Assembly (NCBI GenBank): GCA_964016885.1
Contig: OZ024742.1
Span: forward strand, 43,772,001-43,836,000
Origin: Eledone cirrhosa
Taxonomy: Eukaryota
DNA length: 64,000 nt
Reading direction: 5' to 3'
The notes under the pieces: model-generated
What the model saw: the letters and a program-made list of their open reading frames with translations, nothing else
What the model was told of the DNA's origin: nothing
Databases searched by the model: none
Shown: positions 28,856-52,745 of the stretch, piece after piece
Layout of the letters: every line of letters begins with the position of its first letter
Position numbering within the stretch: position 1 is the first letter of the stretch
Translations under genes and position numbers: made by a program

Positions 28856-29352
28856 TGTATGTATGTGTGTGTGTGTGTGTGTGTGTGTGTGTGTGTGTTC
28901 TTCTGGTTTTAATAATTTCACAAAGTTTTACCAATAGAGAGAGAGTCGGTTTCTAACATAGACACAAGACTCTCTCATTGGAATGTACACAACATCAACT
29001 AGGTAGATATGTATGTATGCATGCATGTGTAGATATGGATGTTATTGTATGTGTGGATGTGTGTTTTGAGTTGTATGTGTGCATGTGTATATGCTTTGTA
29101 TCTGTACATGTGCATATGCAGTTATTAGATTCAAAATTTTTGGAATGTTTTACATATTTTCACTGTTCCATTAATGGATTGTACTTATGGATGGATGGAT
29201 GGATGTATGTATGTATGTATGTATGTATGTATGTATGTATGTATGTATGTATGTATGTATGTATGTATGTATGTATGTATGTATGTATGTATGTATGTAT
29301 GTATGTATGTATGTATGTATGTATGTATGTATGTATGTATGTATGTATGTAT

Positions 29353-29940
29353 CCCACTGGTAACATGTATCCCAGTACAACCTGTCTCATGGTCGGGTCG
29401 TTGGCGACTAAACTGGCAACTCCACCAAGGTTTCTTGGTGAGGAGGGTGACTTTGGACGTCCTGCAGGACAAAAAACAAAACCTGTCAAAGGGCAAAGGA
29501 GCTCTTAAGAGTCAATGGCCATCCAAAATCACCGGGGGAGATGACCCCTTAGCCTTTGTCAAGGCAGAATTCTAGGAGAAGAAAAACTCTATAACACCTG
29601 CAACCCTGATGGTATCCAATGATGTTGACTTGTTCTTCGTTTTGGTAAATATCATCTTGGTTAAGAGAGTGGGACTGGCTTTGTGCAGTGCCTTTGCTCA
29701 CTATAAAAGCTTCACGGCACAGGCATTGCTTTATATCTGGAGATCTCACTGCACTTGTCATCACATGGTACCATGGGCCCAGCACTATGTGTCAATAATT
29801 GTCACAAGTGTAGTGTTTGTACCAGAGTTTTCAAGTCGCTGGCTGGACTAAAAAGTCACACTTGTTCAGCACATCGGTAGGGGATCTCCTACATGGATAT
29901 AAAGTAGTGGCCGTACTCGAAAATGAGTTGGCAGCCACCA
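29353..29940 (+). mobile_element. RTE-derived non-autonomous element, copy 1
   Basis: 5' UTR motif CTAGGAGAAGAAAAACTCT; 3' part encodes [17 protein letters not shown]; ends CTCGAAAATGAGTTGGCAGCCACCA followed by microsatellite. Confidence 0.85.
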
Positions 29941-30093
29941 TATGTCTATGTATGTATATATATGTCTATGTATGTATATATGTCTATGTATGTATATATG
30001 TATGTATATATATATCTATGTATGTATATATGTATGTATATATATATATATATATATATATGTATGTATATATGTATGTATATATATATACAT

Positions 30094-30697
30094 GTCACCA
30101 GTTGGTGCTACTGGTAACATGTATCCCAGTACAACCTGTCCCATGGTCGGGTCGTTGGCGACTAAACTGGCAACCCCACCAAGGTTTCTTGGTGAGGAGG
30201 GTGACTTTGGACATCCTGCAGGACTAAAAACAAAACCTGTCAAAGGGCAAAGGAGCTCTTAAGAGTCAATGGCCATCCAAAATCACCGGGAGAGATGACC
30301 CCTTAGCCTTTGTTAAGGCAGAATTCTAGGAGAAGGAAAACTCTGATATAACACCTGCAACCCTGATGGTATCCAATGATGTTGACTTGTTCTTCTTTTT
30401 GGTAAATATCATCTTGGTTAAGAGAGTGGGACTGGCTTTGTGCAGTGCCTTTGCTCACTATAAAAGCTTCACGGCACAGGCATTGCTTTATATCTGGAGA
30501 TCTCTCTGCACTTGTCGTCACATGGTACCATGGGCCCAGCACTATGTGTCAGTAATTGTCACAAGTGTAGTGTTTGTACCAGAGTTTTCAAGTCGCTGGC
30601 TGGACTAAAAAGTCACACTCGTTCAGCGCATCGGTAGGGGTTCTCCTACATGGATATAAAGTAGTGGCCGTACTCGAAAACGAGTTGGCAGCCACCA
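30094..30697 (+). mobile_element. RTE-derived non-autonomous element, copy 2
   Basis: Near-identical to the other copies. Confidence 0.85.
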
Positions 30698-49000: not shown

Positions 49001-50760
49001 ATATATGTATATATATATATATATGTATATTATATATATATATATGTATGTATATATGTATGTATGTATGTATGTATATATATGTATGTATGTATATGTA
49101 TGTATGTATGTATGTATGTATGTATGTATGTATGTATGTATATATATATATATGTATATGTACGTATATATATATATGTATGTATTATATATATGTATGT
49201 ATATATATATGTATGTATATATATATGTATGTATATATATATGTAATGTATATATATATATATGTATATATATATATATGTATATATATATATATATGTA
49301 TATATATATATATATGTATATATATATATATGTATATATATATATATATGTATATATATATATATGTATTATATATTTATATGTATGTATATATATATAT
49401 ATGTATGTATTTATTATGTATTGTAGTATATGTATGTATATGTATGTATATTATGTATATTTGTATGTATTATATATATATATAGTATGTATATATATAT
49501 ATATGTATGTGTATTAGTATATATATATATGTATGTGTATATTATATATATATATGTATGTCTATATATATATATATATGTGTATATATATATATGTATG
49601 TGTATATATATGTATGTGTATATATATGTATGTATATATATATATATATATATATACATACATACATGTATGTATATATATATATGTATGTATGTATATA
49701 TATATATATATGTATGTGTATATATATATATATATTATGTATGTATATATATATATATATGTATGTGTATATATATATATATATATATGTATGTGTATAT
49801 ATTATATATATGTATGTGTATATATATATATATGTATGTATGTGTATATATATATATATATGTATGTATGTGTATATATATGTATATATATATGTATGTA
49901 TATATATATATGTATATATATATATATGTATGTATATATATGTATATATATATATATGTATATATATATATGTATATATATATATGTATATATTATATAT
50001 ATATATATATATATATGTATATATATATATATATGTATATATATATATATGTGTATATATATATATATGTATGTATATATATATATGTATATATATATAT
50101 ATATATATATATATATATATGTATATATATATATATATGTATATATATATATATGTGTATATTATATATATATGTATGTATATATGTATATATGTATATA
50201 TATATATATATATATATATATGTATATATATATATATATGTATATATATATATATATGTATATATATATATATGTATATATATATATATTGTATATATAT
50301 ATATATATGTATATATATATATATATGTATATATATATATATGTATATATATATATGTATATATATATGTATATATATGTATATATATATGTATATATAT
50401 ATATAGTATGTATATATATATATATGTATATATATATGTATATGTATTATATATATGTATATATATATATATATGTATATATATATATATATGTATATAT
50501 ATATATATATGTATATATATATATATATGTATATATATATATATGTATATATATATATATATGTATATATATATATATATGTATATATATATATATATGT
50601 ATATATATTATATGTATATATATATATATGTATATATATATATATATGTATATATATATATATATATATATATATGTATATATATATATATATATGTATG
50701 TATATATATATATGTATGTATATATATATGTATGTATGTATATATATATATATATAGTAT

Positions 50761-51367
50761 GTCAGGTCACCAGTTGGTGCTACTGGTAACATGTATCCCA
50801 GTACAACCTGTCTCATGGTCGGGTCGTTGGCGACTAAACTGGCAACCCCACCAAGGTTTCTTGGTGAGGAGGGTGACTTTGGACATCCTGCAGGACTAAA
50901 AACAAAACTGTCAAAGGGCAAAGGAGCTCTTAAGAGTCAATGGCCATCCAAAATCACCGGAGAGATGACCCCTTAGCCTTTGTCAAGGCAGAATTCTAGG
51001 AGAAGGAAAACTCTGATATAACACCTGCAACCTTGATGGTATCCAATGATGTTGACTTGTTCTTCTTTTTGGTAAATATCATCTTGGTTAAGAGAGTGGG
51101 ACTGGCTTTGTGCAGTGCCTTTGCTCACTATAAAAGCTTCACGGCACAGGCATTGCTTTATATCTGGAGATCTCTCTGCACTTGTCCTCACATGGTACCA
51201 TGGGCCCAGCACTATGTGTCAATAATTGTCACAGGTGTAGTGTTTGTACCAGAGTTTTCAAGTCGCTGGCTGGACTAAAAAGTCACACTCATGCAGCGCT
51301 TCGGTAGGGGTTCTCCTACATGGATATAAAGTAGTGGCCGTACTCGAAAACGAGTTGGCAGCCACCA
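50761..51367 (+). mobile_element. RTE-derived non-autonomous element, copy 7 (longest 5' end)
   Basis: Starts GTCAGGTCACCAG. Confidence 0.85.
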
Positions 51368-52745
51368 TATATGTATGTATATATATATATATGTATGTAT
51401 ATATATATATATGTATGTATATATATATATATGTATGTATATATATATATATGTATGTATATATATATGTATGTATGTATATATATGTATGTATGTATAT
51501 ATATATGTATGTATGTATATATATATATGTATGTATATATATATGTATGTATGTATATATATATATGTATGTATATATATATATATGTATGTATATATAT
51601 ATATATGTATGTATATATATATATATATGTATGTATATATATATATGTATGTAATATATATATATATAATATATTATATATGTATGTATATATGTATGTA
51701 TATATTATATTATATGTATATATATATATATATGTATGTAATATATATATATGTATGTATATATATATGTATGTATATATAATATTATATATATGTATGT
51801 ATATATATATATATGTATGTATATATATATATATGTATGTATATATATATATATGTATGATATATATATATTATGTATATATATATATGTATGTATATAT
51901 CTATATATGTATGTATATATCTATATATGTATGTAATATATATATATATGTATGTGTATATATATATATGTATGTGTATATATCTATATATGTATGTATA
52001 TATATATATATGTATATATATATATATGTATATATATATATATATGTATATATATATATATGTATATATATATATATGTATGTATGTTATATATATATAT
52101 GTATGTATATATATATATATATGTATATATATATATATATATATGTATGTATATATATATATATGTATATATATATATATATATGTATATATATATATAT
52201 ATATGTATGTATATATATATATATATGTATGTATATATATATATATGTATGTATATATATATATATATGTATGTATATATCTATATATGTATGTATATAT
52301 ATATATATGTATGTATATATATATATATGTATATATATATGTATGTATATATATATGTATGTATATATATATGTATGTATATATATGTATGTATATATAT
52401 ATATATGTATGTATATATATATATATGTATGTATATATATATGTATGTATATATATATGTATATATATATATATATGTATATATATATATATGTATGTAT
52501 ATATGTATGTATATATATATTATATGTATATGTATATATATATATGTATATATATATTATATGTATATGTATATATATATATGTATATATATTATATGTA
52601 TATATATTATATGTATATATATTATATGTATATATATATATGTATATATATATTATATGTATATGTATATATATATATGTATATATATTATATGTATATA
52701 TATATATATATATGTATATATATATTATATGTATATATATGTATA

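Follow-up and report, generated by a model that had tools for sequence, protein, structure and literature searches.

What are the seven closely similar units that lie on one strand of a long simple-repeat tract in the genome of Eledone cirrhosa, and how did the RNA from which they were copied acquire its ends? The tract, a compound (TATG)n/(TA)n array built in blocks with local variants, lies in a stretch of 64,000 nucleotides (assembly GCA_964016885.1, contig OZ024742.1, positions 43,772,001 to 43,836,000 of the forward strand), which we call the window and which sits at 43.8 Mb on a contig 379 Mb long. Each unit is a copy of a ~610-nt retroelement, young, non-autonomous, and RTE-related, that is found genome-wide, dispersed over many contigs. 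This element belongs to a known kind, the bipartite non-autonomous RTEs; its new part is a predicted 5′ module of ~60 nt that, on our modeling, probably folds like the exoribonuclease-resistant RNAs (xrRNAs) of flavivirus subclass 1a and would likely set the 5′ end of the element RNA.

The initial annotation had described seven near-identical, co-oriented plus-strand units in a ~24-kb TATG/TA array, and both motif counts and alignment bear this out. A 17-nt motif at the 3′ end of the units (Table 1) occurs seven times on the plus strand, never on the minus strand, and nowhere in the window outside the tract, and the units align at 87% mean column identity with gaps counted. The units were correctly placed, but the description of their 5′ ends as variable needs amending, since the copies at 45484 and 50758 are full length and those at 38756 and 40866 have one short start in common; in the other three, the truncation falls inside the first 25 nt. 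Over the last 400 nt, the seven copies differ pairwise by 5-15 substitutions (mean, 10), which marks them as young without being recent duplicates. The distance of at least five substitutions between any pair supports independent insertion of the units and rules out their origin by tandem duplication, and even copies 4 and 5, despite their common short start, differ at nine positions. Dispersed copies (n = 24) are further apart, with 16.7 substitutions over 400 nt versus 10 in the array.

That no copy occurs outside the tract, as had also been stated, holds for the window and not for the genome: in the 3.0 Gb searched, the 3′-terminal 22-mer has 27,006 exact matches and the 5′-terminal 23-mer has 9,783, with no match for either reversed control. 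Forty 10-kb stretches sampled at round coordinates contained four copies at an identity of at least 94%. Our sample of dispersed copies comprises the 30 matches that head the list for the 3′ end; they all lie on contig 1, and some are neighbors. For 14 of them, the start falls at unit position 1-3; the other 16 are truncated. Contigs of four sequencing runs span the unit with few differences. Loose contig ends at 45897-45900 and 45664 were considered as a deletion point and rejected, as they fall on GATC/GANTC sites and are read as library junctions. Inverted or fold-back fragments of the unit adjoin some copies (L038, L033, and L057).

An Rfam scan of the unit returned a weak hit (23.4 bits, E = 0.13) exactly at its 5′ boundary to Flavivirus_SLIV (RF01415), which we take to be a family of xrRNAs. 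Folded alone, the 64-nt module is predicted to form a helix P1 of 5 bp, a helix P2 of 4 bp, a single unpaired C, a helix P3 of 6 bp, and a 2-nt linker, and the unconstrained fold of the 64- to 66-nt module is a three-way junction in three of five copies, including that of the window. The published description of Zika virus (ZIKV) xrRNA1, as far as the available sections of the papers extend, comprises a G3-C44 pair, a U4-A24-U42 triple, C22 at the junction, an A-U pair where L3 ends, and a second pseudoknot (PK2) of 4 bp (PMC7603331, PMC8571300, PMC10747610, PMC8374639). If the P3-L3 arm is granted two additional bases, the unit has counterparts at matching offsets for the G and U, the C of the junction, the A-U pair of the triple, both linker bases (C and A), and the U that follows P1, along with four Watson-Crick pairs in a predicted PK2; the L3-terminal A is missing. 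A descriptor drawn from the published features matches copies 6 and 7 only in the window, with no match in 800,000 seeded random trials and a chance rate below 3e-8 per position. Parsing by hand gave no second, tandem xrRNA downstream of the module. Given this model, we would expect the module to resist exonuclease in vitro, with rather more confidence than we attach to its setting of the 5′ end in vivo, which we only slightly favor.

The junctions of the element with its target provide a record of where its RNA began. Among 60 full-length junctions (the 30 best scoring and the 30 first listed), the G of the module is preceded by T at position -1 in 57, by A at -2 in 53, and by T at -3 in 53, with -4 being mixed. 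In 20 of the 60 junctions, the alternating purine/pyrimidine register of the target is interrupted between -4 and -3, compared with a frequency of 5.9% at positions farther upstream (P = 1e-10); in 10, it is interrupted between -5 and -4. Because of the break between -4 and -3, the RNA likely began ~5 nt before P1. Xrn1 is reported to stop 5-6 nt short of the first paired base (PMC10747610) or, in another account, two positions before the first pseudoknot, PK1 (PMC13161572), in the portions of these papers at hand. To judge from the sequence, the genomic 5′ boundary appears to coincide with the reported stop position, where an exonuclease would stall. Truncations are also enriched inside the module (5 of 16 in dispersed copies, P = 0.017; three of five in the window), as a stable fold would lead one to expect, although microhomology with the target would also account for it.

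The module is not confined to the family represented in the window. It also stands at the 5′ end of a short family of greater age (with 2,371 exact junction matches, pooled with a decayed full-length element), of this decayed full-length element itself, which is of RTE type and has a different body and 3′ end (L130 and L267), of a third short family (L153-L155, L162, and L164), and of a fourth family, D, with a different tail (101 matches). We aligned 39 copies of the module, leaving out units of tandem arrays and copies that carry indels or are heavily decayed (e.g., L094, L177, and L179). Pairing holds in 95.9% of cells across 38 distinct rows, a value reached in none of 500 shuffles and compared with 26-48% in slid controls, although the kinship of the rows inflates pairing scores. 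The junction C is invariant in all 39 rows, with the reservation that the patterns used to retrieve families C and D required it. The G and C of PK1 are present in 38 of 38 rows and the A and U of the triple in 36 of 38, their contacts being predicted.

Where the families differ is informative as well. Family majorities disagree at 14 of 24 columns of P2, loop, and linker, versus 2 of 35 core columns (P = 1e-5), and the two differing core columns make up one compensated pair of P1. P2 changes in sequence and length between families with every pair kept, and it is described as the variable part of viral xrRNAs too (PMC13161572, PMC10747610, in excerpt). On the aligned sequences, the four families retain the core, and their differences are almost confined to the parts in which viral xrRNAs vary too. 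A search pattern that required both sides of P1 to change gave 11 hits, of which 10 were homologs, all paired, four of them from one tandem array.

Several related observations emerged from these searches. The module of the fourth family also occurs as head-to-tail tandem arrays with units of ~57-118 bp (L157-L160, L185-L192, and G000:C15 near 169,588-170,789). A 48-bp tandem repeat family (L166-L170 and L173-L176) matched a loose xrRNA pattern and is unlike the module in appearance. In the older families (L093, L096, L097, and L207-L236), the body is linked to a 170-nt 5′ module by a microsatellite-like spacer whose length varies; this arrangement suggests that their 5′ module was acquired by elements nesting in the same repeat.

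Outside the E. cirrhosa genome, pattern hits were obtained in viral (27) and metagenome (19) sequences, none of which matched the descriptor (220 kb of loci in all); in five loci of genome contigs related to reverse transcriptase (RT), model hits did not exceed 12.3 bits, and a scan of viral proteins found no relative; because the collections are mostly prokaryotic, this negative is weak. Contigs in prokaryotic genome records (L309-L311) have RTE-like RT matches at 43-52% identity and are probably host contamination. In the accessible part of the supplement of PMC5786205, two core motifs of the module are absent, and the matches of a third motif are 5S ribosomal RNA (rRNA). A viral origin of the module is possible but unsupported. 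An Xrn1-resistant motif is described in a crustacean flavivirus (PMC8632102, in excerpt), and our search of the genome for remnants of flavivirus NS5 gave no match, with controls equally silent, so that it is uninformative.

A number of observations weigh against the module being an xrRNA that sets the 5′ end of the element. Its Rfam scores (23.4, 27.7, and 23.7, with a best value of 29.6 among 64 scored candidates) stay far below the gathering threshold of 54.5, and its folding z-scores are ordinary (-0.14 to -0.92). The minimum-energy fold pairs the 3′ strand of PK2 with an upstream UAUG and lies 1.5 kcal/mol below the bare junction; PK2 itself, with its four pairs and 96% of cells paired over the 38 rows, shows no two-sided change. 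The junction pairs of viral xrRNAs are described as all C-G (PMC13161572, available sections), whereas the window's family closes P1 and P3 with U-A; the closing pair of P1 is C-G in family C. At the equivalent of A37, the L3-terminal base, the window's family has U, and at that of U51, family D has C, both bases of the A37-U51 pair being present in families 3 and C. The compensated P1 pair lends weak support, because the search demanded two-sided change and both changes are transitions, and the four families are related and all from one genome. The short start of copy 5, which lacks the module, is found in 203 copies genome-wide. The two near-intact autonomous relatives described below have no module within 1.8-2.4 kb upstream, and a direct autonomous parent was not found, with 0 of 30 5′ hits and 0 of 30 3′ hits running into an open reading frame (ORF). 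Because it falls below the Rfam threshold and lacks a C-G junction, we do not file the module as a member of subclass 1a.

These observations leave room for other explanations of the module. It could be an internal promoter or a binding site of the RTE protein, with transcription starting at the boundary and the fold at most protecting decapped RNA, a possibility we consider unlikely. An internal promoter would likewise give a fixed 5′ end, bipartite non-autonomous long interspersed elements (LINEs) have been proposed to be RNA polymerase II transcripts (PMC5786205, in part), and a G that often directly precedes the module in family D, as well as in 3 of 60 family-1 junctions, could record a cap. 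At -1, however, 57 of the 60 family-1 junctions have T and no extra G; furthermore, the start coincides with the predicted nuclease stop, and the paired changes together with the length change of P2 point to selection on RNA structure.

The sharp boundary would also suit a self-cleaving ribozyme of an uncatalogued class, playing the role that hepatitis delta virus (HDV)-like and twister ribozymes are described as playing at RTE 5′ ends in other animals (PMC6765202, PMC8501958, available sections). We consider this improbable, as the conserved positions are those of xrRNAs, no ribozyme family is among the six hits that the unit gave in Rfam at E ≤ 10, and parsing by hand as HDV-like, twister, pistol, or hammerhead failed. 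It is similarly improbable that the resemblance is incidental, the module being no more than a three-way junction that an additional 5′ helix closes and that is conserved solely through the close kinship of the families. The low Rfam score, the ordinary z-scores, the alternative helix in the minimum-energy form, and the lack of two-sided change in PK2 would all agree with such a junction; against it stand the low chance rate of the descriptor, the partition of changes between core and variable columns, and a one-sided A-to-C change in family D that extends PK2 to six pairs.

If the module is indeed xrRNA-like, a route from RNA to new copy can be proposed. A copy would be transcribed within a longer host or satellite read-through RNA, from which a 5′-3′ exonuclease (e.g., Xrn1 or Xrn2) would remove the upstream part until it stalls ~5 nt before P1, leaving a protected RNA of unit length. 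An RTE-type protein may then recognize the 3′ hairpin in trans, as the sharing of this hairpin between elements suggests. Target-primed reverse transcription is established chemistry for LINEs. Here, the protein would nick an alternating TA/TG run and prime through the terminal AT, in keeping with the target choice, polarity, and short duplications observed, and reverse transcription would reach the end of the RNA in about half of the copies and often halt inside the module, as the copies display. The satellite would grow mainly by its own slippage and block amplification. The broader proposition, that a flavivirus-type xrRNA serves as a working, portable 5′ part of animal retrotransposons in place of a promoter or ribozyme, is in our view evenly poised.

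The remainder of the unit resembles parts of an autonomous RTE-type element whose frames match endonuclease, RT, and C2H2 domains (L128 and L129, near-intact). Unit positions 194-400 are ~69% identical to the 5′ untranslated region (UTR) of this element, the zinc-finger remnant matches the last finger of the L128 ORF with 17 identities in 27 residues (E = 5e-10), and one form of 3′ hairpin is common to the unit, the autonomous element, and two older short families. This 3′-terminal hairpin is likely a recognition signal of the RT. Copies of the autonomous family (L126, L128, and L129) are ~95% identical to each other, contain microsatellites inside both UTRs, and also lie in TA/TATG runs; by description alone, the family can be likened to RTE-2_OV. 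The RTE label is based on domain layout and a 5′ UTR motif, which the RTE-derived part of OegopSINE likewise contains; a comparison of RTs returned no named clade references.

The unit thus has the makeup of a bipartite RTE, with a 5′ UTR part joined to an RTE-type 3′ end, the ORF being deleted, a fixed 3′ end, and truncations. The UTR, zinc finger, and hairpin, together with the 16 truncated copies among 30, support the earlier reading as a non-autonomous RTE derivative with 5′ truncation of the target-primed type. The full-length RTE sharing both ends that this reading called for was not found, the closest relative being the one at ~69% in the UTR, and a protein search for a direct parent gave no match. 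A short interspersed element (SINE) derived from tRNA was ruled out, as the unit has no tRNA head: ARAGORN found no tRNA gene, and the Rfam scan of the unit gave no tRNA or 5S hit.

Why so many copies stand in this one array is best considered from the dispersed sample. An alternating purine/pyrimidine run of at least 12 nt is present within 40 nt upstream of 27 of the 30 copies, versus 11.8% of random points, and its polarity is of the TATG type in 22, of the CATA type in 5, and tied in 3. Downstream, 27 copies have an alternating run, with polarity divided as 21, 3, and 6. Insertion into TA/TATG microsatellites with strand polarity, which had been suggested from the window, is thereby substantiated. 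Most target duplications are not measurable inside microsatellites; L037, with a duplication of only ~12 nt of non-satellite target after its 3′ end, provides a clear target-site duplication, and L010 and L060 have no satellite after the 3′ end. TA/TG-type runs make up 6.5% of 400 kb of sampled genome and 17,984 bases of the array. From this share of target, 2.5 exact 3′ matches would be expected in the array and 5 are seen (P = 0.11), so that special clustering in long tracts beyond the supply of target is rejected. Since unit density roughly matches target supply, the 24-kb array gathers copies mainly as a large target.

The initial annotation had gone further, proposing that every insertion brings a TATG tail templated by the element, so that element and satellite expand each other in the manner of SART and TRAS. 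The common orientation of all seven array copies and the alternating runs downstream of dispersed copies would agree with such a tail, and microsatellite tails of RTEs are described as seeding repeats in Lepidoptera (PMC2887409, in excerpt). The sequence after the terminal CAT, however, varies from copy to copy and often continues the local flavor of the repeat (e.g., in copy 5), the insertions at L037, L010, and L060 left no satellite tail, and long runs lie upstream too. Seven short duplications would amount to ~100 bp of the 18 kb of satellite, and the seven units themselves sum to 3.8 kb of the 23.6-kb tract. Together with the absence of excess clustering, this makes mutual expansion quite improbable and leaves it unsupported. 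The parallel to SART and TRAS is a loose one, extending to oriented insertion into a simple repeat and no further, as the present family is dispersed over the genome.

Table 1. Coordinates of the array, the seven copies, and the predicted elements of copies 6 and 7 in the window.
Feature	Coordinates	Strand	Remarks
Satellite array	29186..52745	.	(TATG)n/(TA)n, insertion target
Copy 1	29353..29941	+	5′-truncated inside structured module, ~unit position 24
Copy 2	30094..30698	+	5′-truncated, ~unit position 8
Copy 3	36236..36832	+	5′-truncated, ~unit position 17
Copy 4	38756..39169	+	short form without 5′ module; 1-base deletion relative to recurrent short start
Copy 5	40866..41278	+	short form without 5′ module; start found 203 times genome-wide
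Copy 6	45484..46099	+	full length, reference unit
xrRNA-like module, copy 6	45484..45547	+	fold prediction and descriptor
PK1, copy 6	G 45487 with C 45530	+	predicted
Triple, copy 6	U 45488 with A 45508-U 45528	+	predicted
P1, copy 6	45489-45493/45532-45536	+	predicted
P2, copy 6	45494-45505	+	predicted
Junction C, copy 6	45506	+	unpaired
P3, copy 6	45507-45512/45524-45529	+	predicted
PK2, copy 6	45516-45519/45540-45543	+	predicted
5′ UTR-like segment	45678..45884	+	~69% identity to autonomous RTE-type element (L128, L129)
ORF C-terminus remnant	45895..46035	+	C2H2-like zinc finger and stop codon
Copy 7	50758..51368	+	full length
xrRNA-like module, copy 7	50758..50821	+	descriptor
3′-terminal hairpin (copy 7)	51334..51368	+	z -3.8, 0/200 shuffles

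Other sequences share the array and its surroundings. A dispersed repeat unrelated to the units, beginning with (ATC)n, lies within the array at 31087-31406; it has relatives at 56337-56640, 7876-8131, and other sites in the window and contains a 48-bp unit that is tandem in other places. Also within the array, on the minus strand and in opposite orientation to the units, is a LINE-like C-terminal fragment at 44515-45012, presumably CR1-like, which gave no Pfam match. Single-base register breaks scattered in the satellite at ~42100-42700 and 46600-50000 may be consensus errors of long reads. Beyond the array, at ~53000-56210 on the minus strand, stands a GC-rich element with RT-like and GIY-YIG-like frames that looks Penelope-like by eye and has no Pfam match at E ≤ 0.001.

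The clustering in a microsatellite would by itself be a modest finding. Were the interpretation of the module correct, it would amount to a cellular, non-viral xrRNA present in tens of thousands of copies and in several families, and host 5′-3′ exonucleases would become the processing enzyme of the element RNA. Besides internal promoters and ribozymes, non-LTR (long terminal repeat) elements would have a third means of fixing where their 5′ ends lie. The fold would have been exchanged between RNA viruses and retroelements, or have converged closely, which would bear on the origin of the flaviviral fold. According to section 7 of a 2021 review, the xrRNAs characterized by then were all viral, and whether eukaryotic genomes contain any was an open question (PMC8374639, in part). 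Our literature search, judged mostly from its listings, found no natural retroelement xrRNA, with subscription papers mostly outside its reach and Dfam/Repbase not covered; the available sections of a 2025 paper mention no retrotransposon (PMC12397905), and the main text of an octopus repeat annotation uses neither "ribozyme" nor "non-autonomous" (PMC13282606).

Among known systems, SART and TRAS are retrotransposons of telomeric repeats that likewise insert in one orientation into a simple repeat; unlike them, the present element is of another clade, non-autonomous, and dispersed, with no confinement to telomeric repeats. Its 3′ end abuts simple repeats as in RTEs with microsatellite 3′ ends (Lepidoptera, PMC2887409; insertion signature, PMC6007223; octopus RTE-2_OV, PMC9115989), for which the accessible portions of the same papers propose terminal microhomology with the target; here, in contrast, the repeat lies on both sides of the unit and is apparently target rather than tail. 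With bipartite non-autonomous RTEs such as Bov-A, RTESINE1/2, WALLSI3, and MAR4_MD (PMC5786205, in excerpt), it has in common the composition of 5′ UTR, ORF end, and 3′ end, the lack of coding capacity, and the absence of a tRNA head, whereas its separate structured 5′ module, shared by families of different body and tail, and its TA/TATG targeting set it apart.

At its exact 5′ boundary, the unit carries a structured RNA, as do the ribozyme-headed R2 and its short interspersed degenerate elements (SIDEs), L1Tc, RTEs with HDV-like ribozymes (PMC6765202), and Perere-3 with twister variants (PMC8501958), other RTEs being described in the sections available as lacking promoters and as freed from co-transcripts by such ribozymes. 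Unlike these elements, it has no ribozyme match, and we propose that its RNA would be released by a stalled host exonuclease instead of self-cleavage. The closest fold remains that of the flavivirus subclass 1a xrRNAs (ZIKV xrRNA1 and Murray Valley encephalitis virus [MVEV] xrRNA2; PMC8374639, PMC7603331, PMC8571300, PMC10747610, in part; RF01415). The differences are that the module heads a chromosomal retroelement and not a viral 3′ UTR, occurs singly and not in tandem, closes two junction helices with U-A, scores below the Rfam threshold, and has a resistance that is predicted only. In common with these viral RNAs, the predicted fold has the P1-P2-P3 junction with a 5-bp P1 and a single unpaired C between P2 and P3, a 2-nt P3-P1 linker starting with C, a 5′ G and U placed for PK1 and the U-A-U triple, a putative 4-bp pseudoknot from loop to downstream sequence, a variable P2, and a 5′ boundary 5 nt before P1.

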